From: an uncultured Thermoplasmata archaeon
Lineage (GTDB): Archaea; Thermoplasmatota; Thermoplasmata; GCA-020350865
DNA length: 55,405 nucleotides
Reading direction: 5' to 3'
NCBI GenBank assembly: GCA_965371185.1
Contig: CBDUXN010000002.1
Span: forward strand, 1 to 55,405
Part shown: one piece after another, positions 7,406-50,909 of the stretch
Layout of the letters: each line of letters opens with the position of its first letter
Position numbering within the stretch: position 1 is the stretch's first letter
Notes under the pieces: generated by a model
What the model was told of the DNA's origin: nothing
The model's database searches: none
The model's input: the letters and a program-made list of their open reading frames with translations, nothing else
Made by a program: the position numbers and the translations under genes

Positions 7406-8155
7406 TTAAAGTATTTCGAGCTTTTTTTTCAATATTTTTTTTAAAAGTGGATTCATAACAAAATACTGCTTTCCATCATCTAAGTTCTGTTTAACCGACC
7501 GATGTTTATTTTCCTTAATGTCCTTTACGACCTTAACAAAAGCGGCGCTGGTGTTCTCTTGACATTTTAATCTTATACTTTCAAGCGTGTCCCCTTTGTC
7601 GATGCTGAATTTTTGAGTGTACAAAATATCTCCCAAATCCACACCCGGCGAGACGAAGTGTATAGAAATGCCGGTTTCCTCTCCCAATAGGATCGACCAT
7701 TCTGTTACATTCATCCCCCTGATCTTCGGTAGAATCGCGTAATGGCCGTTCAAAGTTCCGATTTTCGATGTGTTTAAAATTTCCTTTCGAATTATTCCAG
7801 TTCCCCACAACAGGATCAAATCAGGTTCGATCTTCTCCAGAATTCCTCTACAACGTTTACCATTATGACTTTTCACATAATAAACTGGAATATTCAATTC
7901 CTTTGCCACGGACTTGAGTTTTCTGGAAAACATCTTACTACCCACTTCCCCATTCCCTCCGGGAGTCCTTAATTCCTTCATCATCCCTCTGAACCCGTAT
8001 CTCTTCAACCCTACCTTCATCGAGGCAAAAATGCCTACATTGCTGTAAATAATTGCCGTGGGTTTCATACCGGAGGCCGTTAAATTCCTCAATGCCTTCT
8101 CTTTCCAAGCCAGTTTGTCGAATCTTGGATATTGGGAGAAAATCACGATATTCAT
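7406..8155 (-). CDS. Formyltransferase-family protein (Fmt/PurN-like N-terminal domain), candidate sugar N-formyltransferase
   Basis: Motif LNGHYAILPKIRGMN matches N-x-H-x-S/A-x-LP-x-x-RG, and SPGVDLGDI carries the catalytic Asp region. I place the start at MNIVIF (ATG 8155), which directly abuts the upstream stop at 8152-8154. The longer track ORF (to 8263) would overlap that gene. Confidence 0.65.
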   Translation of the reverse strand: MNIVIFSQYPRFDKLAWKEKALRNLTASGMKPTAIIYSNVGIFASMKVGLKRYGFRGMMKELRTPGGNGEVGSKMFSRKLKSVAKELNIPVYYVKSHNGKRCRGILEKIEPDLILLWGTGIIRKEILNTSKIGTLNGHYAILPKIRGMNVTEWSILLGEETGISIHFVSPGVDLGDILYTQKFSIDKGDTLESIRLKCQENTSAAFVKVVKDIKENKHRSVKQNLDDGKQYFVMNPLLKKILKKKLEIL

Positions 8156-9381: not shown

Positions 9382-10569
9382 CTACACCCTGCTATGCCTC
9401 CCCTGTTTGGCCTCAGCGGTCTTATAATAAATTTCCATAAGCTCGTTGGAGATGTTATCCCAGGAATAGCGCTTAGCCGCAACAATACAATTATCACTGT
9501 AACTGTCTCTCCCATCTCTTATGACCTTTAAGATGGCATTTTTTACAGGTTCGGATTTTGCTTCCTTGACCAGCTGACCTGTTTTTCCGTCAATCACAAC
9601 CTTGTTAACACCACCCACATCGGTGGACACAACAGGAACACCGCAAGTCAATGCCTCTATAACAACGGTTGGCATCCCCTCAAATTTTGAGCACAAGACG
9701 AGGGCATCAGCACAATTCATGATCTCCGGGATCCTCTTATGCGCCACAGGTTTTAAGAATGTGACCCCTTTTATATCCTGGGTTTTGATTATGTTTTTGA
9801 GCCTCTTCTCTTCCGGCCCCTCTCCTACCAAAACCAATCGTGCTCTTGGCATCTCGGATTTCAGGCTCTTAAAAGCCTGAAGAAGCAGGTCCAGGTCTTT
9901 CTCTATGGAGAACCTGCCGATATAAAGGATGATGACCTCATCTTGGCTGAAGCTGTATTTCCGCCTCATCTTTTTCCTATCCAGGGGCTTGAATATACTT
10001 GTATCCACACCCACAGGAATGACCACGATTCTATCTCCAAGATCGCCACCTTTTTTTGAATAATAATCCTTTGTGGATTGGTTCACAGCTATCAATTTGT
10101 CGATACGGTTCAGGCTCCATTTTTCTATGGAAGTGTATATTCCCCATATTAGGATGTTCTTTCTCGTTTTTATACCTATATCAGGTATGCCGTGCAGCGT
10201 GCACACTTTAGGATATCTCCTGCGGAACAGGATGAACGGGAGCATGAAATCAGGTCGGTGCGCATGAATAATCGAGTTTTTGGACGGCTTCAAAAAAGGT
10301 GTTTTAACGAAGAGCTTCAATAGAAAAATAATGCTTGTTGCCTTCCTCATCTTTAGTGGGATACACTTGATATTATAGTTCTTCAGTTCCTCGTCCTCGA
10401 TCTCGGTGCTGATAAGCGTCACATCCATTCCTTTTTTGCCCAGGGATACCGCTAGACCTGCAATATAAGCCAATGTGCCGCTTGGCTCAGCTTTGAATGG
10501 ATTCTTTCCCGATACCAGGATTATTTTCAGTTTTCTTCCTCCTCTTATTGAGGCGATTAGGGGGTTCAA
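9382..10569 (-). CDS. Glycosyltransferase family 4
   Basis: 395-aa ORF. ..ADALVLCSKFEGMPTVVIEALTCGVPVVSTDVGGVNKVV.. is the GT4 signature. The track start is a TTG codon and there is no nearby ATG, so the start is uncertain. Confidence 0.8.
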   Translation of the reverse strand: MNPLIASIRGGRKLKIILVSGKNPFKAEPSGTLAYIAGLAVSLGKKGMDVTLISTEIEDEELKNYNIKCIPLKMRKATSIIFLLKLFVKTPFLKPSKNSIIHAHRPDFMLPFILFRRRYPKVCTLHGIPDIGIKTRKNILIWGIYTSIEKWSLNRIDKLIAVNQSTKDYYSKKGGDLGDRIVVIPVGVDTSIFKPLDRKKMRRKYSFSQDEVIILYIGRFSIEKDLDLLLQAFKSLKSEMPRARLVLVGEGPEEKRLKNIIKTQDIKGVTFLKPVAHKRIPEIMNCADALVLCSKFEGMPTVVIEALTCGVPVVSTDVGGVNKVVIDGKTGQLVKEAKSEPVKNAILKVIRDGRDSYSDNCIVAAKRYSWDNISNELMEIYYKTAEAKQGRHSRV

Positions 10570-10802: not shown

Positions 10803-12059
10803 ATGGGCAAGAAAATCTGCATCCTGGGTCTTGGTTACATAGGACTACCTACAGCCGGCATGCTTGCCACGTACGGGTATGATGTTATAGGCGTGGATGT
10901 AGATGAGAAAATCGTAAAAAAAATGGTCAACGGGGAGGTTCACATAAGGGAAGCAGGACTTGAAACGCTGGTACAGGCTGCATTGAAGTCAAGACGACTT
11001 CAGGTTCGAACAGCGCCTCAAAAGGCGGATGTATTCATAGTATGCGTCCCAACACCCATCGATGATGAGACAAAGAAGCCAGATCTCCGCTTTGTTGAAT
11101 CTGCTGTTGAGAGCGTCCTTCCTCATCTCCAAAAGGGCAACTTGATAATAGTGGAATCTACGGTGCCTCCGTCGGCTAATAAAAACCTCGTTATCCCGAT
11201 TCTGGAAAAAAGTGGATTGGAAGTTGGAAAGGAGCTGTTTGTGGCATACTGCCCAGAGAGGGTTTTACCGGGCAAGATACTCACGGAGCTTGTGAACAAT
11301 GACAGGATAATCGGGGGCGTGGATAAGAAATCAGCTGAGATGGCCAAGGAGCTCTACAGATCCTTTGTGGAGGGTGACATTCACCTGACAGATATCGAAA
11401 CTGCTGAAATGGCGAAGTTGATTGAAAACACTTTCAGAGATGTGAACATAGCCCTAGCCAACGAATATTTGAAGGTATCAGAGCGTGTGGGCGTAGATGT
11501 TTGGAAGGCCATTGAACTGGCGAATAAACATCCGAGGGTCAACATTCATTATCCAGGTCCCGGGGTCGGTGGCCACTGTATTGCAGTTGATCCATGGTTC
11601 ATTGTGAAGGCGGATGAAGAGGACACAATTCTCATCAGAACCGCCAGAAAGACCAACGACGGGATGCCGAACTTCATCGTTAATGTCATGGAAAAGGAAT
11701 TGGAAGGGATTGAGAACCCGACGGTAACGGTATTCGGGGTTGCATATAAAGGGAATGTAGGTGATACACGTCAATCACCAGCCCGACAAATCATTTCCCT
11801 TCTGATGGAAAGGGGATACGAGGTCAGAGCTTATGATCCCTTGGTAGAGGATTTCCATTACGAGCTTTTACCCTTGGAGAAGGCTGTGGACAATTCTGAC
11901 TGTATAGTAGTTCTGGCAGATCATAGAATTTTCAACAATTTGGACCTAGAAGTAATTTTTTCGCTGATGAGGAATAAAAGGGTCATCGATACCAAGAACT
12001 GCCTCTCCCCAAATTGGGAAAAAGCAGGTTTCAGTGTCAGGATTTTAGGAAATGGATAA
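10803..12059 (+). CDS. wecC: UDP-N-acetyl-D-mannosamine (UDP-sugar) 6-dehydrogenase family
   Basis: Start taken at ATG 10803 (MGKKICILGLGYIGLPTAGMLA, the NAD-binding GxGxxG). The catalytic-Cys region GPGVGGHCIAVDPWF is present. Immediately followed by wecB. The track's TTG extension from 10605 runs through a C-rich intergenic tract. Confidence 0.8.
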   Translation: MGKKICILGLGYIGLPTAGMLATYGYDVIGVDVDEKIVKKMVNGEVHIREAGLETLVQAALKSRRLQVRTAPQKADVFIVCVPTPIDDETKKPDLRFVESAVESVLPHLQKGNLIIVESTVPPSANKNLVIPILEKSGLEVGKELFVAYCPERVLPGKILTELVNNDRIIGGVDKKSAEMAKELYRSFVEGDIHLTDIETAEMAKLIENTFRDVNIALANEYLKVSERVGVDVWKAIELANKHPRVNIHYPGPGVGGHCIAVDPWFIVKADEEDTILIRTARKTNDGMPNFIVNVMEKELEGIENPTVTVFGVAYKGNVGDTRQSPARQIISLLMERGYEVRAYDPLVEDFHYELLPLEKAVDNSDCIVVLADHRIFNNLDLEVIFSLMRNKRVIDTKNCLSPNWEKAGFSVRILGNG

Positions 12060-24204: not shown

Positions 24205-25167
24205 TTAAATGATTTGCATAACGGCAAAGATGATGATTATGAGGCAAAGTACCCCTTCGATTGCCCAGAGTATCCAGACCAATTGCCGTTCTTTTACCCT
24301 TCTTTTCTTCATGATCAGATGGGTCAACGATTCTATTTTCCCTTTGTAGGTCAAGTAACCATCCTTGTCGGGAATGCCGTAATTCTCGCCTCGGAAATGT
24401 CCTCTAAGTTTAAGGGAAAACTCGATGATCATCGGTATGAACAGTATCGCCCCGATGGTCTTCAAATCGCCGATAATGGCGGCACATGCTATGGTTGAGC
24501 CCATGAACAGGGTGAGGGTATCTCCGGGAAATATTCTTGCTGGGTAGCGATTGAACCAAAGAAAGGCCAAAAGCGCACCCAGAAGCGGGAACAACAGTAG
24601 AAGAGAGTCCATAGCACCGAACAAGAAGGAAATTATTATCAATGTTATGCTGATGATGATCCCCAAACCCGCACCCAGGCCATTGAAGCCTTCGAGCATA
24701 TTACCCGCATTGGCAGCACAGGTCACACCAAATGGAGCGATCAGCACCATGAGCAAACCAAAATCCACTTCAACGAATATGAACGACATTGTGGTCTTGT
24801 CCACCACATACACACCGATCGGTATGGCGAACAGGAAGGGGATAACAGCCTTGATCCTCTGCCTCAAACCGAAGAGGTCGTCCATGATCCCCGCTAAAGC
24901 AGCACCTACCACCGCCAAGACCGGGGCTGCCAGAAGGGGCAGATCATCTTTGTTAAAGAGTTTGTTGATCACTAAAAGGGTTGAGACACCGGAAATGAAA
25001 CCTATGACCACCGCCAATCCACCCATCTCTGGGATCTTGGGTTTGTTGAATTTGTTTTGATCCACACCTACAAGGCCTCGTTCCGTCAATTTTTCTATGA
25101 GCCAGAGTACGGTAATGAATGTGGTCAAAAATGATACTATTAGAGCTATTATCAGTATTTCGACCAT
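24205..25167 (-). CDS. MraY/WecA-family polyprenyl(dolichyl)-phosphate N-acetylhexosamine-1-phosphate transferase (AglH-like)
   Basis: About 10 TM helices. Motifs include ..GIMDDLFGL.. and ..NAGNMLEGFNGLG.. (the N-x-x-N-x-x-D/E-G-x-D/N-G-L type). ATG at 25167 (MVEILII); the track start at 25191 is a GTG. Confidence 0.75.
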   Translation of the reverse strand: MVEILIIALIVSFLTTFITVLWLIEKLTERGLVGVDQNKFNKPKIPEMGGLAVVIGFISGVSTLLVINKLFNKDDLPLLAAPVLAVVGAALAGIMDDLFGLRQRIKAVIPFLFAIPIGVYVVDKTTMSFIFVEVDFGLLMVLIAPFGVTCAANAGNMLEGFNGLGAGLGIIISITLIIISFLFGAMDSLLLLFPLLGALLAFLWFNRYPARIFPGDTLTLFMGSTIACAAIIGDLKTIGAILFIPMIIEFSLKLRGHFRGENYGIPDKDGYLTYKGKIESLTHLIMKKRRVKERQLVWILWAIEGVLCLIIIIFAVMQII

Positions 25168-29239: not shown

Positions 29240-30259
29240 ATGCAACTTTCAGATTTCGATTATTCTCTACCGCAGCGTCTCATAGCGCAAAGCCCTGCAG
29301 AGCCTAGAGATACCTCGAAACTCATGGTGCTTCGCAATGACGAGATCGAGCACAAAACATTTCGGGATTTGGTAGGGTATCTTGGCAAGGGAGATGTGCT
29401 CGTTCTGAACGATTCCAAGGTTTTGCCTGCCAGGCTCTTTGGAAGGAAGGAAACAGGAGGAAAGGTGGAGCTACTTTTAATAAACAAGGAGGATGGAAAT
29501 AGGTGGGAATGCCTAATAAAAGGTAAGAGCGTCAGATCGGGTACAAAGCTATTTTTTGCTGAGAACAGGTTGGAAGGCATCGTGGAGGATAGGATCCAGG
29601 GGGGCAGGTTCAGGGTTGAGTTTCTTACTGAGAATGACTTGGATGAGATCATCCAAGAGATCGGTGAGATGCCCATACCGCCTTATATCAAAGAGGTACC
29701 TGAGGATCCGCAGAGGTACCAGACCGTCTATGCAAAAGAGAACGGTTCTATAGCCGCCCCAACAGCGGGGCTGCATTTCACCGAGCAAACGCTCGGCGAG
29801 ATCCAAACGAAAGGCGTTGAGATCGTCAACATAACGCTGCATGTGAGCATAGGCACATTCTTGCCCGTGAAAAGCCAGGATATTACCCTTCATACCATGG
29901 GACCCGAGCATTTCGAAATCGGGGCGAATGCGGCAAGGAAGATCAACACCGCAAAGGCCAATGGAAACAAAATAATCGCCGTGGGAACCACCACGGTCAA
30001 GGCCCTGGAGAGCGCCTGCGATGATGCGGGGAAAATAATGGGAATGGAAGGTCAAAGCGATCTTTTCATCCATCCTGGATATGAATTCAGATCCGGTTTG
30101 GATGCGCTATTAACCAATTTCCATCTGCCTAAATCAACGCTCCTCATGCTTGTAACGGCATTTGCTGGTGGGGACAGGATCATGAAGGCCTACAGAACCG
30201 CAGTGGATAACTCGTACAGGTTCTACAGCTTTGGCGATGCAATGCTGATTCTGAGGTAA
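29240..30259 (+). CDS. queA: S-adenosylmethionine:tRNA ribosyltransferase-isomerase
   Basis: MQLSDFDYSLPQRLIAQSPAEPRDTSKLMVL.., ..VLVLNDSKVLPARL.., IAAPTAGLHFT and GTTTVKALES are QueA hallmarks; 339 aa. Confidence 0.9.
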   Translation: MQLSDFDYSLPQRLIAQSPAEPRDTSKLMVLRNDEIEHKTFRDLVGYLGKGDVLVLNDSKVLPARLFGRKETGGKVELLLINKEDGNRWECLIKGKSVRSGTKLFFAENRLEGIVEDRIQGGRFRVEFLTENDLDEIIQEIGEMPIPPYIKEVPEDPQRYQTVYAKENGSIAAPTAGLHFTEQTLGEIQTKGVEIVNITLHVSIGTFLPVKSQDITLHTMGPEHFEIGANAARKINTAKANGNKIIAVGTTTVKALESACDDAGKIMGMEGQSDLFIHPGYEFRSGLDALLTNFHLPKSTLLMLVTAFAGGDRIMKAYRTAVDNSYRFYSFGDAMLILR

Positions 30260-46695: not shown

Positions 46696-47550
46696 ATGGC
46701 AATGGCTGCAAAGAGAGCTCCAAGAGCTACAGCGCGAAAGGTGAAGGACAAGTGGCGGTCCAAGGAATGGTACAGAATACTCGCTCCAGAGATGTTCAAT
46801 AATGTACAGATTGCGGAGACGTTGAGCGACGACAGTGCTAAGGTAATAGGCAGGGTAACAGAGGTGACGATGCAGGATTTGACAGGCGATTTCTCGAAGA
46901 TGCACATCAAACTCATGTTTAAAATTCATGAAGTGAATGGCTTCGATGCCCATACCAACTTCATTGGACACACTCTTACAAGTGATTACATCCGAAGATT
47001 GACCAGGAGAAAGCACTCGAAAACAGACGGTGTTTTTGATGCAATAACAAAGGATAAGGCTTTGATTCGGGTCAAACCAATGGCGGTTACGGAGAAGAGG
47101 ATCCAGGTTTCCCAGCAGAAGGCGATTCGCAGTATCATGGGGAAGATCATAACCAGCGAGGCCGCCAAATCCATAAGCAGTGAGTTCATAAAAGAGATGC
47201 TTTCAGGCAACATATCGAAAAGCATTCTCAGGGCGAGCAAGCCCATCTACCCGTTGAAGAGGGTGGAGATACGGAGATCAGAGGTTCTCAGATCGCCAAC
47301 AGAAAAGGTTGTGGCGCCGCCACCTCAACCGCTAGAAGAGGTAGCCGTGAGGACTGAAGAGGAGTTGGAGGAGAAACCCGAAGAGCTGGCTGGGGAGGCG
47401 GTGGAAGAGAAAATTGACGAGAAGGAGAGGCCGGAAGAAACCATTGAGGAAGAGAAGGCTGGAGAAGAGGAAGTCGAGGGGAAAGAGGAGCTGCAACCAA
47501 AACCCGAGGAGGAAAAGGTTGTAGAAGGGGAAGGACCAACGGAGGATTAA
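46696..47550 (+). CDS. rps3ae: 30S ribosomal protein S3Ae (eS1) with ~80-aa acidic C-terminal extension
   Basis: ..KVKDKWRSKEWYRILAPEMF.., ..LTSDYIRRLTRRKHSK.. and ..KPIYPLKRVEIRRSEVL match S3Ae. Residues 205-284 (47308-47547) are Glu/Pro/Lys low complexity. AGGAG lies upstream of the ATG. Confidence 0.9.
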   Translation: MAMAAKRAPRATARKVKDKWRSKEWYRILAPEMFNNVQIAETLSDDSAKVIGRVTEVTMQDLTGDFSKMHIKLMFKIHEVNGFDAHTNFIGHTLTSDYIRRLTRRKHSKTDGVFDAITKDKALIRVKPMAVTEKRIQVSQQKAIRSIMGKIITSEAAKSISSEFIKEMLSGNISKSILRASKPIYPLKRVEIRRSEVLRSPTEKVVAPPPQPLEEVAVRTEEELEEKPEELAGEAVEEKIDEKERPEETIEEEKAGEEEVEGKEELQPKPEEEKVVEGEGPTED

Positions 47551-47594: not shown

Positions 47595-47733
47595 GCCGAG
47601 GTGGCTCAGCCTGGTGGAGCGTCGGACTCATAGGGTACAGCTTGATGCTCTCAGGCACCTAAGAAATCCGGAGGTCACGGGTTCAAAAACGAGCCAGTTG
47701 AGGCTGGCTCTGTTGAAAACCCCGTCCTCGGCA
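47595..47733 (+). tRNA. tRNA with anticodon CAU (elongator Met or Ile2) carrying two putative introns
   Basis: Manual cloverleaf: acceptor GCCGAGG/CCTCGGC; D arm GCTC-AGCCTGGTG-GAGC; anticodon stem TCGGA/TCCGG with loop CTCATA^A; variable loop AGGTC; T stem ACGGG/CCCGT; discriminator A. Insertions lie at 47633-47665 (33 nt, after position 37) and 47688-47719 (32 nt, in the T loop near 59/60). The spliced length is 74 nt. CCA is not encoded. Confidence 0.8.
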
Positions 47734-47735
47734 CT
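47710..47735 (+). repeat. Direct repeat copy A (3' end of second intron, T-stem 3' strand and acceptor 3' strand of the tRNA)
   Basis: ctgttgaaaaccccgtcctcggcact, followed by a T-run. Confidence 0.85.
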
Positions 47736-47736
47736 C

Positions 47737-47744
47737 TATTTTTA
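47737..47744 (+). terminator. Oligo-T tract after the tRNA
   Basis: tattttta lies immediately 3' of the discriminator region. Confidence 0.35.
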
Positions 47745-47788
47745 TGCAAATCTTTATGTGAAACCAATGCAATAGGTTTCAAAAGAAT

Positions 47789-48403
47789 ATGGAAGGGTAT
47801 AGATTGCCACTGATAGAATCGAGATATGGTATGTGGATTTTTCTGCTTACAAAAATCATGGCCATTGTAATACTCGTCGTATTCCTTTTATTTGCGTTTA
47901 ACATCGCAAGATTATGGCTCACTTACCTCCCTCAGATGGAAGAGGCTGCTGAGGAAACAGCAAGAATGTTGGCAGAAACAGGCGGAGGGGGAGAACCTGC
48001 CTCAATAATACAAGGCGACATAATTCCTGAGTTGCGAATGGTTTTAATGCTCTCGTTAATATTATTCGGCCTGTTAGACGGCATTTATGCGCTTATGTTG
48101 TGGAGAGGAAAACCTCCATTTCGGAATGAATCAGTTTTAATTCCTCTAACAGCAATATATTTCATTGCCAGAATTTTTCACACTTACGTCATAACCATTA
48201 TTTCAACAACAATAGTCACCCATAGTAATCCCAGAATTTTAATGAACTCACTCTACCTGACAATCCCAATTTTTTCAGTGCTCAGCCTCGTGATAATCAT
48301 AATCGTTTATAATAAGGTTTTAAAGAGAAGAAAAAAAGGGACAAAAATCCTGTTCAAAATCCCGTCCTCGGCACTATTTTTTTGGACAGAAAATTTTAAT
48401 TAG
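47789..48403 (+). CDS. 4-TM membrane protein, paralogue 1 of a tandem triplet (unknown family)
   Basis: 204 aa. Shares W..(Y/F)(L/F)P(Q/N)ME.A.EET, GG, (L/C)FGLLD..(Y/F)A..LW(R/K)GK, NPR..MN.LYL and FKIP blocks with the next two genes. Its C-terminus after FKIP (SSALFFWTENFN) is encoded by the tRNA-like repeat. Confidence 0.7.
   Translation: MEGYRLPLIESRYGMWIFLLTKIMAIVILVVFLLFAFNIARLWLTYLPQMEEAAEETARMLAETGGGGEPASIIQGDIIPELRMVLMLSLILFGLLDGIYALMLWRGKPPFRNESVLIPLTAIYFIARIFHTYVITIISTTIVTHSNPRILMNSLYLTIPIFSVLSLVIIIIVYNKVLKRRKKGTKILFKIPSSALFFWTENFN
48350..48375 (+). repeat. Direct repeat copy B (tRNA 3'-end-like 26-mer inside the 3' end of paralogue 1)
   Basis: ctgttcaaaatcccgtcctcggcact has 24 of 26 identical to copy A, including an exact 15-mer cccgtcctcggcact. 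The offset is exactly 640 nt and it is also followed by a T-run. Confidence 0.85.
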
Positions 48404-48471
48404 ATTCAATATAATTATTCAATTGGAAATATAAAAAAGTTGAGGGTTCCTAATTGTCTCTAATTGGACAA

Positions 48472-49082: not shown

Positions 49083-49679
49083 TTGATATTTAAACAAATA
49101 GAGGTGTCAGAATTGCTTAGCTCGATAAAGGGTGAGGAAACTAGGTTTTCTATGAAGGTATTAACCGTCCTTGTATTAATTGGATTCCTGGTTTATACGA
49201 TGATTATATTAACACTATGGATGTCTTTTCTTCCGAATATGGAACACGCCGCTGAGGAAACACAAAAATTAATCGAAAAATCTGGTGGCGAGACCTCGAC
49301 GGTACAAAGTGTTTATTTCTCTGAGATGAGAATGGTTTATACCATATCATTAATATGCTTTGGATTGTTGGATGGTGTCTTTGCTTATCTCTTGTGGAAA
49401 GGAAAGATGCCTAATAGTCGATTATATAATGTGATTGGACCGCAAGTGGTATTATACTCCACTATCAGAGGTATCATCGGTGGATTAATCATAACTCAAC
49501 TATCAATAGGAACTTTTACTGGGCATGACCCTAGATTGATGATAAACATGCTTTATTTGGTAATAGCTATATCTTCCGTTATTAGCTTGATAATCATTTT
49601 TTACATTAAGATGAAGTATCTCAGAGAAAATAATGAAGAAGATGTAACTTTTAAAATCCCTGAGGATGCTTCGTTCTAG
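49083..49679 (+). CDS. 4-TM membrane protein, paralogue 3 (start uncertain)
   Basis: The track start is TTG 49083; the first ATG is at 49152 (MKVLTVL), preceded by GGTGAGG. It has the same conserved blocks and ends ..VTFKIPEDASF. Confidence 0.65.
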   Translation: MIFKQIEVSELLSSIKGEETRFSMKVLTVLVLIGFLVYTMIILTLWMSFLPNMEHAAEETQKLIEKSGGETSTVQSVYFSEMRMVYTISLICFGLLDGVFAYLLWKGKMPNSRLYNVIGPQVVLYSTIRGIIGGLIITQLSIGTFTGHDPRLMINMLYLVIAISSVISLIIIFYIKMKYLRENNEEDVTFKIPEDASF

Positions 49680-49760
49680 TCCCTCATACTCCATTCACTA
49701 TCATATGTAAATGCTCACCCATGTTTTTTTAGGTTAACTTTTACGGTAAGTATGTTGGTA

Positions 49761-49916
49761 TCAAGGTTCATCAATATCTGTATTTACATCTCCACGAAGA
49801 TCCCGCATAATTTTATCCGTATTTCCTTTGCCTAAATAACCCTCAAACTCGTCGAATACGTCGGAATTAGATTTCTTACGAGTCTTAACTTGTACTTTCT
49901 TAGGACTGTCTGACAT
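49761..49916 (-). CDS. Hypothetical 51-aa protein downstream of radA (weak call, not in ORF track)
   Basis: Hand translation gives MSDSPKKVQVKTRKKSNSDVFDEFEGYLGKGNTDKIMRDLRGDVNTDIDEP*. It is on the same strand as radA, 48 nt after it. No motif is recognised. Confidence 0.25.
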   Translation of the reverse strand: MSDSPKKVQVKTRKKSNSDVFDEFEGYLGKGNTDKIMRDLRGDVNTDIDEP

Positions 49917-49964
49917 GACTACCCTCAACCGGCATAATTATGCGGTTTAAACTTTTCAATCGCT

Positions 49965-50909
49965 CTAATCCCTAATACCCTCCTCACAGAGCATGATCAC
50001 GGCCTCCCCATCTGGCAAGCTCGGAGAGTCCACGAGCCTGCATATCCTCTTGCTTCCCTTGCTCTTTCTCATGTATATTCTGAAAGTGGCGGTGTGGCCA
50101 ACGATATGGCCTCCAATGGGTCTGGTCGGGTCGCCGAAAAATGCATCCGGTTTCGCGGAAACCTGATTTGTAACGAGGATCGCTGCGTTGGTCAAATCAG
50201 CGAACCTCTGCAGGTCGTGCATATGTCTGTTCAGCTTTTGCTGCCGCTCAGCCAATGCCCCCCTGCCGATATACTCGGCACGGAAATGCGCGGTCAAAGA
50301 ATCGACTATCAGAAGTCTGACAGGAAACTCCTTTGCGAGCATCTTCGCCTTGTCCATCAAAAGCATCTGGTGGTGGGAGTTGAAAGCCCTTGCCACATGC
50401 ACATTTTGCAAAACTTCTGTGGGATCCAGATCTAGGGCCTGTGCGATCTGTATTATCCTTTCAGGCCTGAAGGTGTTCTCTGTATCGATCATCAAGGTAT
50501 GGCCTTCCAATCCCCCCTGCTCCTCTGCCAGTTGAACATTCACCGCTAGCTGATGCGCTATCTGCGTCTTCCCTGAGCCGAACTCTCCATAGACCTCCGT
50601 TATTGCCTGTGTCTCAAAGCCTCCGCCCAATAATTCATCAAATGCCTTGGCCCCTGTGGTGAGCTTACCAACGGTCTTCCTTTTATCTAGCAACGCGTCT
50701 CCCGTCATGAAGTTCCCGATATCCGCCTCGTGTTTTGCAAGATTTATGATCTTGTTGGCTGTGGGTTCTCCTATCTCAGCCAACTCCGCAAGGTTCTTAG
50801 GAGATTCCACAGCTATGGACATCAAATCCGTATAGCCTGCTTCTCTCAATTTTTCAGCAGTTGCTGGTCCTACTCCTGGCAACTCTTCTATTTTTTTTTC
50901 TTCTGCCAT
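49965..50909 (-). CDS. radA: DNA repair and recombination protein RadA
   Basis: The N-terminal HhH is ..[20 protein letters not shown].., Walker A is GEFGSGKTQ and Walker B is ..[15 protein letters not shown]... 314 aa. Confidence 0.95.

Follow-up and report, generated by a model that had tools for sequence, protein, structure and literature searches.

We analysed a 55,405-nt stretch of DNA from an uncultured Thermoplasmata archaeon (contig CBDUXN010000002.1 of GenBank assembly GCA_965371185.1, positions 1 to 55,405), referred to below as the window. It contains a tRNA(CAU) gene with an elongator-type acceptor stem (47595..47733, forward strand), whose 3′ part occurs a second time 640 nt downstream, inside the coding region of a small membrane protein. 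The tRNA gene is preceded by the gene for ribosomal protein S3Ae (46696..47550, forward strand) and followed by three forward-strand genes of one protein family, which we call P: P1 (47789..48403, 204 aa), P2 (48454..49029, with an uncertain start at TTG 48454 or ATG 48475) and P3 (49083..49679). Beyond them, on the reverse strand, lie a small open reading frame (ORF) of 55 codons (49761..49928) and radA (49965..50909). The interval between the tRNA gene and radA is called the slot.

A sequence-only reading of the window had reported that the 26 nt at 47710-47735 and 48350-48375 match at 24 positions, share an exact 15-mer and are both followed by a T-run. All three statements hold. A search of the window with the 26-nt pattern returned two sites, with 0 and 2 mismatches, and the same search gave two sites in none of 100 shuffles of the window. 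Similarity runs on into the T-runs (CTATTTTTAT after copy 1 and ATTTTTTT after copy 2), with 30 of 34 positions identical between 47710-47743 and 48350-48383. In the whole assembly of 3,608,813 bases the exact 15-mer, CCCGTCCTCGGCACT, is confined to the two repeat copies; therefore the repeat is not a dispersed one, an objection that the sequence-only reading had itself raised, and it is not a product of chance.

Copy 1 (47710..47743, forward strand) comprises the last 10 nt of an intron in the T-loop of the tRNA gene, the 3′ exon (47720-47733) and the trailer with the T-run. Copy 2 (48350..48383, forward strand) is a hybrid. Its first 14 nt (48350-48363), CTG TTC AAA ATC CC, are the conserved codons of the P family for L-F-K-I-P; they agree with the tRNA sequence CTGTTGAAAACCCC at 12 of 14 positions, including an exact CCC. 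The rest, GTCCTCGGCACT (48364-48375) and the T-run, is tRNA tail, in line with the proposal that the downstream copy derives from the tRNA 3′ end. This tail begins at the G of the P1 proline codon CCG, which is unique in the family (relatives have CCT, CCA, CAT or CGA at this place). The joint between the two parts would thus lie in CCC, within a 12/14 similarity that appears to be fortuitous. Since the intron-like 10 nt of copy 2 are family codons, their likeness to the intron cannot be taken as a sign that intron sequence was duplicated in this genome; the claim that the repeat includes 10 nt of the intron is correct for copy 1 and fails for copy 2.

P-family codons alone account for the first 14 nt of copy 2, as they would if the resemblance were accidental or if the copy were a functional spare 3′ half of a split tRNA. 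Either idea is barely credible: the 15-mer is found twice in 3.6 Mb at a distance of 640 nt, against no shuffle with two sites, and copy 2 sits inside an ORF, lacks a leader complementary to a 5′ half and has a counterpart in only one other of the nine loci compared below.

The consequence for P1 is a foreign C-terminus. In the alignment ten P homologues end F-K-(I/L)-P-(D/E)-(E/D)-x-x-x-stop, and P1 reads FKIP-SSALFFWTENFN. P1 has exchanged the native acidic end of five residues for twelve non-native ones encoded by the tRNA 3′ exon, its terminator and the bases that follow, with the stop codon 28 nt past the tRNA-derived block. The sequence-only reading assigned the whole of this end to the repeat; the departure after FKIP and the residues SSAL do come from the repeat proper, whereas FFW is encoded by the T-run and TENFN by sequence beyond it. 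The core of its gene-conversion idea, namely that the native 3′ end of P1 was replaced, is confirmed by the same alignment. The 204-aa ORF between the repeats is real. It keeps every family-invariant residue, which suggests that P1 is still functional, and the tRNA T-run probably now terminates its transcription. Complete A-type genes (P1 belongs to this type; see below) at other loci have ordinary short ends with no tRNA-derived tail: FKLPDEAVL in G002, FKLPKETAP in L066 and YKIREKTWI in L067 (handles are explained below). The P1 fusion is therefore younger than the split between the A and B types. We also looked for the P1 C-terminus at loci without a tRNA gene, a finding which the sequence-only reading had said would speak against its view, and it did not occur there.

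The tRNA(CAU) gene has two introns, at position 37/38 (47633-47665) and at position 59/60 (47688-47719). On the unmodified window neither ARAGORN nor Rfam called a tRNA; once about 31 nt of the T-loop insert had been deleted by script, ARAGORN called tRNA-Met(CAT) with an anticodon-loop intron. The exons are identical in all nine loci of the genus, both introns vary between loci, and the T-loop hairpin shows compensatory changes across the nine sequences. In an orthologue from a different family of the class the T arm, GGGTTCAAACCCCGT, is uninterrupted, and the sequence without the T-loop intron reads GGGTTCAAACCCCGTCCTCGGCA; this fixes the splice point at 59/60. The fold predicted for the T-loop insert (T stem, 3-nt bulge, TTCAA:TTGAA pairing, internal loop and a hairpin of 7-8 bp) would be a relaxed form of the bulge-helix-bulge arrangement. 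With a cloverleaf on removal, conserved exons and a variable but compensating sequence, the insert has the marks of an archaeal bulge-helix-bulge intron, and splicing is predicted. Its presence in 9 of 9 loci of the genus and its absence from the other family indicate that it was gained within the class. A genome-wide ARAGORN run on the source genome listed only 34 tRNA genes. Of these, 19 have anticodon-loop introns (14-118 nt), and tRNA-Met is missing from the list; at least two further tRNAs escape the program, the present tRNA(CAU) and one on contig C40 whose insert is very long.

Nine loci of the genus were compared: the window, whose source genome is a 3.6-Mb metagenome bin of 295 contigs with 4% contamination (G000), four further genomes (G001-G004) and four metagenome contigs (L066-L069). 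The flanks are conserved. S3Ae is 75-85% identical in all related loci and stands upstream of the same tRNA class-wide; radA is 87-97% identical in related loci. The slot between the flanks is hypervariable, with no P gene, one P gene of type A or B, a P gene and another ORF, or three P genes. Three P genes are found in G000 only. One P gene abuts radA in G001, L066 and L069, one is accompanied by the small ORF in G002, one lies about 145 nt before radA in L067 (where the small ORF was not found), and one is cut by the contig end in L068; the repeat is absent from G001, G002, L066, L067 and L069. In G003 the tRNA gene is followed by 233 nt with the small ORF and then by radA, and no full-length P gene was found in this 80%-complete assembly. 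In all, P genes occupy the slot in 8 of 9 loci and the repeat occurs in 2 of 9, G000 and G004. Outgroup families keep the linkage of S3Ae and the tRNA gene and do not have radA downstream, and they therefore cannot give the ancestral state of the slot. The small ORF, present once in G000, has counterparts with 53-56% identity in G002 and G003, and none was found in G001, G004, L066, L067 or L069; it is probably a real small gene carried by some alleles of the slot.

The comparison of empty and occupied sites that the sequence-only reading had proposed thus gives an empty site in G003 and, in G004, a second duplication. G004 is a closed 5.2-Mb genome (CP070751.1). Its slot holds a P gene with a native end, then 13 nt, then a perfect duplicate of the tRNA tail and then an unrelated ORF of 235 aa (ORF X), so that the repeat brackets one P gene. 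The duplicate is exact at 62 of 62 positions; it begins at G52/G53 in the T arm and takes in the whole intron, the 3′ exon and the T-run, at a spacing of 707 nt. It carries the intron variant specific to G004 and therefore arose in the G004 lineage; since all of the T-loop intron lies within it, the intron is older than the duplication there. The suggestion that the intron predates the event or is linked to it accordingly stands for G004, whereas copy 2 of G000 offers no evidence for it. An empty site, as in G003, is equally expected after loss of a P gene. ORF X (L035 4323-5030) is predicted to have membrane helices, belongs to no Pfam, PHROG or PADLOC family and was unseen at the other loci.

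The tree of P proteins separates an A-type (P1 and the proteins of G002, L066, L067 and L068) from a B-type (P2, P3, the proteins of G001, G004 and L069, and a metagenome protein, P0002) with support 85/98. P1 and P2, neighbours in the window, are 38% identical. P2 and P3 have native ends, FKIPDEATH and FKIPEDASF; the closest relatives of P2 are P0002 (59-60%) and the L069 gene (57-58%). A search for homologous proteins returned P0002 as the single relative, and a search of genome contigs with P2 alone found no related loci. Between loci the P alleles are 31-59% identical, as against 75-97% for S3Ae, RadA and GlcF. The GC content of third codon positions is 37-40% in the P genes, 58% in the S3Ae and radA flanks, 49% in glcF and 58-63% in a core paralogue of the T2SSF family.

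This paralogue points to the origin of the family. Residues 27-130 of P1 align, with 37% identity and E 8e-17, to the last 105 aa of a T2SSF (FlaJ/TadC-like) protein, and the N-terminal two thirds of P are homologous to the C-terminal part of the T2SSF platform protein found in most genomes of the class; in G000 the homologue is on contig C34 (L031 1507-3310, minus strand). The class-wide tally takes in two unpublished genomes, G097 and G211, and no specific claim rests on either. The short P form at full length was found nowhere outside this genus or outside the slot. P belongs to no Pfam, PHROG or PADLOC family and has no homologue in the phage or plasmid collections. The P family thus derives from the pilus/archaellum platform protein, and its members are plausible targets of diversifying selection.

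The types help to read the DNA that follows copy 2. The spacer after it (48376..48453, forward strand) is colinear with the spacer that follows the complete tRNA gene in B-type loci. In local alignments set against dinucleotide shuffles it resembles the post-tRNA spacer of L069 (z 4.5, p<0.001) and that of G001 (z 3.7, p 0.006) and does not resemble the spacers of A-type loci (p 0.27-0.55). The similarity to B-type loci reaches about 55 nt past copy 2. The spacers after copy 1 and after copy 2 of the window are unrelated to each other.

A second trace of a B-type allele may lie at the other end of the array. About 23 nt overlapping the P3 stop codon (49676..49698, forward strand) resemble the complement of the radA 3′ end; the score is 26 against 13.5±2.5 in shuffles for the radA end of L069 (p<0.001), and five other radA ends give p 0.002-0.012. 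L069 matches best, and its P gene is, with P0002, the nearest relative of P2. As negative controls the 3′ ends of P1 and of P2 were compared as well and showed no likeness to a radA end. The actual radA end is 270 nt past this remnant, beyond the small ORF. We hold with moderate confidence that the remnant may mark the right edge of a B-type allele. Remnants of this kind were also considered as traces of a shared older event; they were not significant in G002 or G003, and only the one in G000 was kept. Separately, in L066 (metagenome contig Ga0209636_10022859) the complement of the radA 3′ end stands right after the P stop codon as GCCGTCCTCGGTA. A stretch of 10 nt in it (CCGTCCTCGG) also occurs in the tRNA tail CCCGTCCTCGGCA, which gives the conserved flanks on either side of the slot a short direct similarity.

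The colinearity bears on a second form of the gene-conversion idea, in which a short patch of about 12-35 nt of tail and T-run was copied by conversion or template switching onto a P1 gene that already stood upstream of P2, with no allele added. The unambiguous tRNA-derived stretch is indeed short (12 nt and the T-run), the donor is only 640 nt away, and the 12/14 similarity was available for priming. Such a patch would end where the B-type spacer similarity goes on for another 55 nt or so, in the order tRNA-spacer-P of B-type loci, and G004 has a full 62-nt duplicate at the equivalent place. With these observations against it, a short patch seems very unlikely.

We favour a reading in which copy 2 is the scar of an illegitimate, microhomology-mediated joint between two divergent alleles of the slot, and give it a probability of roughly 0.55. 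In the G000 lineage an A-type allele (S3Ae-tRNA-spacer-P1) and a B-type allele (tRNA tail-spacer-P2-P3-radA end) would have been linked head to tail in this order, so that the tRNA tail in P1 would be the left edge of the second allele. On the left, the exchange would have been anchored in the conserved homology of S3Ae and the tRNA gene. The other joint would be illegitimate: the P1 codons CTG TTC AAA ATC CC mimic the T-loop-like end of the intron and the 3′ exon, and the break may have been sealed at CCC by homology-facilitated illegitimate recombination (HFIR) or by microhomology-mediated template switching. The partners could have been two copies of the chromosome or the chromosome and incoming DNA. 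The G000 locus can be described as an A-type allele (tRNA-spacer-P1 ... small ORF-radA, as in G002) that carries a whole B-type allele (as in L069 and G001), and copy 2 has an A-type P gene on its left and a B-type spacer with P2 on its right. G004 would represent an independent event of the same formal kind with the joint at the start of the T-loop. We prefer this account because it needs one step and no recombinase, is colinear with known arrangements on both sides and explains why the joint falls at the codon mimicry.

HFIR has been described for Acinetobacter and pneumococcus. The likeness of the present case to HFIR or template switching lies in one side placed in conserved homology, the other joint placed at a microhomology of a few bases, and flanks colinear with two parental arrangements. 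It differs in that the outcome here would be additive, with the anchor end duplicated, whereas HFIR usually leads to replacement or deletion, and in that here the process is reconstructed from sequence.

A duplication in situ could give a similar order of genes. If a segment that starts with the tRNA tail and ends with the FKIP codons had been duplicated in tandem at the microhomology, P1 and P2 would have been made together and would have diverged later. Microhomology-mediated tandem duplication is a described mechanism (PMC13167724). The period fits (repeat spacing 640 nt, paralogue spacings 650 and 644 nt), and the predicted product, a first copy fused to the tail and a second with a native end, matches the one observed. 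P1 and P2 are only 38% identical, however, and their upstream spacers are unrelated, yet 15-17 nt of tail have stayed identical; the ordinary ends of the other complete A-type genes also place the fusion after the A/B split. On the divergence of P1 and P2 and the non-tRNA ends of the other A-type genes we rejected tandem duplication, which is left with a very small probability.

An artefact would require that two strain alleles were strung together by a chimeric metagenome assembly or a library chimera. The source genome is a contaminated bin in many contigs and the locus varies between strains, which leaves room for such an error. The sequence shared at the joint (3 exact nt, 12/14) is nevertheless far too short to mislead a k-mer assembler, and therefore the joint must be in the reads. 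The closed genome of G004, of the same genus, has the same kind of structure, and P1 is an intact ORF with all the family-invariant residues. An artefact is thus highly improbable.

Site-specific integration, which the sequence-only reading had raised, is the main rival. Here a P cassette would have been inserted at the T-loop by a tyrosine integrase acting in trans or by the process that spreads non-coding modules behind other tRNA genes of this genome; in G000 a later deletion would have removed about 67-76 nt from between the FKIP codons and the intron end, trimming the right copy and fusing it to P1. Several findings agree with this. The G004 repeat (62 nt, exact, from G52/G53-T54 to just past the T-run) has the extent of a classical att identity block, and G003 offers an empty site. 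The difference between the spacings in G004 and G000 (707 - 640 = 67 nt) is close to the 76 nt from FKIP to the intron end in G004. The G000 genome has seven tyrosine recombinase genes, two of them directly beside tRNA genes; a 19/20 copy of the tail of its tRNA-Ala(CGC), beginning in the T-loop, lies on a different contig; and about 11 modules stand behind tRNA genes, several of them followed by a copy of a tRNA tail. Attachment sites (attP) that carry a tRNA intron have already been proposed (Sugahara et al. 2012, PMC3293823).

Other findings speak against it. The bracketed 614-645 nt hold a P gene and neither an int gene nor a fragment of one: within 47736-48349 the only ORF of at least 50 aa that lies wholly inside is a 50-aa frame on the reverse strand (47932-48084), inside P1, and it is no integrase. 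A search with the tyrosine integrase profile PF00589 gave no match on contig C2, which holds the locus, and seven on other G000 contigs, in agreement with the earlier remark that no integrase lies in or near the locus; in G004 the PF00589 matches are fragmentary only. No attP-bearing element was found: IMG/VR gave no attP-like match, and phage and plasmid records gave no P homologue, although such negatives do not prove that a free form is absent. In IMG/VR a 14-mer scan was unspecific, and two longer patterns gave one chance match each, in unrelated coding DNA. An nhmmer profile built from six module copies found 11 copies in G000; the nine tRNA(CAU) loci gave no match to it, even at E 10. 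Insertion of the casposon type was rejected, as Cas1 (PF01867) had no match in G000-G004 with controls responding.

P is also a resident of the slot in 8 of 9 loci, mostly without the repeat, and L069 has the same spacer and a B-type P gene beside the tRNA gene with no repeat, which contradicts the suggestion that the bracketed gene was captured as foreign cargo. Two features of an integrated element are thus present, a direct repeat formed by the tRNA 3′ end around the insert with the tRNA gene restored and an empty site in a relative; two are missing, an integrase in the bracketed DNA and an insert foreign to the locus with a free attP form. For G000 integration needs the deletion as an additional step. 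A heavily eroded element, as the sequence-only reading would have it, is likewise less simple than a joint between alleles, given that no virus or plasmid with attP, no int fragment and no Cas1 was found. We consider integration possible, though on balance unlikely.

The joint between alleles has its own difficulties. Its parents, an A-type allele with a native-ended P1 and a tRNA-P2-P3-radA locus, are unseen, so the joint is reconstructed and not observed; related but non-identical loci of A-type (G002, L066-L068) and B-type (G001, L069) were found. Both events, in G000 and in G004, placed the joint inside the 62-nt segment from the T-loop to the tail, which a site-specific enzyme would explain directly; a survival bias in favour of short repeats may be another account of this placement. 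The modules behind other tRNA genes of G000, several with a tail copy after them, together with the bona fide integrases beside tRNA genes, mean that a dedicated process aimed at tRNA tails exists in the lineage. The radA-end remnant has only 17-19 matches over about 23 nt, the spacer similarity falls in AT-rich DNA, and the genome is a metagenome bin in 295 contigs. All these points count against the joint as we have drawn it.

A more far-reaching version of integration would make the P genes single-gene cassettes that lack an integrase of their own and are moved by a T-loop-specific recombinase in trans or by the tail-duplicating process; they would form an integron-like array at an intron-bearing tRNA tail, with an attachment segment that includes the T-loop intron. 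We regard this as a rather doubtful conjecture. If it were true, the tRNA intron would not shield the gene from insertion, or would itself have been delivered by a cassette. The parallel with integron cassettes is an analogy only: single promoter-proximal genes without a recombinase are stacked at one site, the newest by the attachment point. Unlike an integron, the site has neither an attC-like element nor an IntI-type integrase and shows no sign of excision circles, and the repeat is restricted to two of the nine loci.

Among known systems the closest in form are the attL and attR sites of SSV- and pNOB8-type elements; integration of SSV1 and pNOB8 into tRNA genes is described in PMC3293823. 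As there, a direct repeat consisting of the tRNA 3′ part, from a loop to a few bases past the gene, brackets DNA, the tRNA gene is intact, and a relative (here G003) has an empty site. Unlike there, the insert is 0.6-0.7 kb long, is a resident gene and contains no integrase or int halves, no free att element was found, and the right copy of G000, reduced to 12-15 nt, falls within an ORF. At the tRNA-Thr(GGU) locus of Caldiarchaeum subterraneum the population is heterogeneous, with a partial tRNA copy beside extra DNA, and an intron-bearing duplicated or att segment has been proposed (Sugahara et al. 2012, PMC3293823). The G004 repeat, which holds an entire T-loop intron, is similar in this respect. 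Caldiarchaeum differs in that the copy is a 5′ fragment, the insertion sequence of 1.8 kb encodes a recombinase and the intron came in with the element; in the present case each of the nine loci has the intron, whether a repeat is there or not, and there is no recombinase. The non-coding modules of G000 share with the present locus the order tRNA-insert-tail copy and a left edge in the T arm, and differ in that the insert at tRNA(CAU) is a protein-coding gene to which, as at all nine loci, the module profile has no match.

The locus is accordingly a duplication of a tRNA tail without a recombinase at a hypervariable resident locus, with one copy now coding. Partial tRNA duplications are normally taken as proof of an integrated virus or plasmid; the same footprint without a recombinase calls for caution in automated prophage and island calling in archaeal metagenome bins. 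P1 is in addition a clear case in which a tRNA 3′ exon and terminator have come to supply a protein gene with its C-terminus and stop region. The G004 duplicate, with its complete T-loop intron, is relevant to the proposed role of introns in protecting tRNA genes against insertion (PMC3293823).

Some observations concern other tRNA genes of G000. The module family has about 11 non-coding copies of 85-200 nt with the structure CGGGCTATCG ... GAGATGCCC ... palindromic T-run hairpin, in which GAGATGCCCWTTGTTTGG follows CGGGCTATCG and the palindromic hairpin is CCAACTTTTTATGAAAAAGTTGG. Modules stand directly behind tRNA genes on contigs C3 (~24300-24390 and ~29455-29550), C5 (~11895-11990), C10 (~9555-9650), C40 (~7490-7590), C49, C50, C104, C185, C213 and C252. 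On C5, C10 and C40 the module is followed by an exact copy, 17-18 nt long, of the segment from the T-loop to the 3′ end of its own tRNA, and one of the C3 modules by the tail of a different tRNA. The modules on C5 and C40 have an extra internal insert of about 120 nt.

Tandem units of 80-111 nt precede tRNA-Phe, a tRNA on C120, tRNA-Ser and tRNA-Gln (C29:6456-6753, C120:7221-7626, C5:~12140 and C10 upstream of 9717). Each unit repeats the sequence near the promoter together with 17-22 nt from the start of the tRNA and then has a hairpin, GTGGnn...nnCCAC, with compensatory changes in its stem between units. A tyrosine recombinase gene with a 400-aa frame (C35:21123-22007) adjoins tRNA-Ala(CGC), and the 19/20 copy of the tail of this tRNA, at C104:~1700-1725, starts from C56/A57 of the T-loop; the two probably belong to one conventional integrated element that the assembly has divided. 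Another recombinase gene adjoins tRNA-Leu(TAA) on C126.

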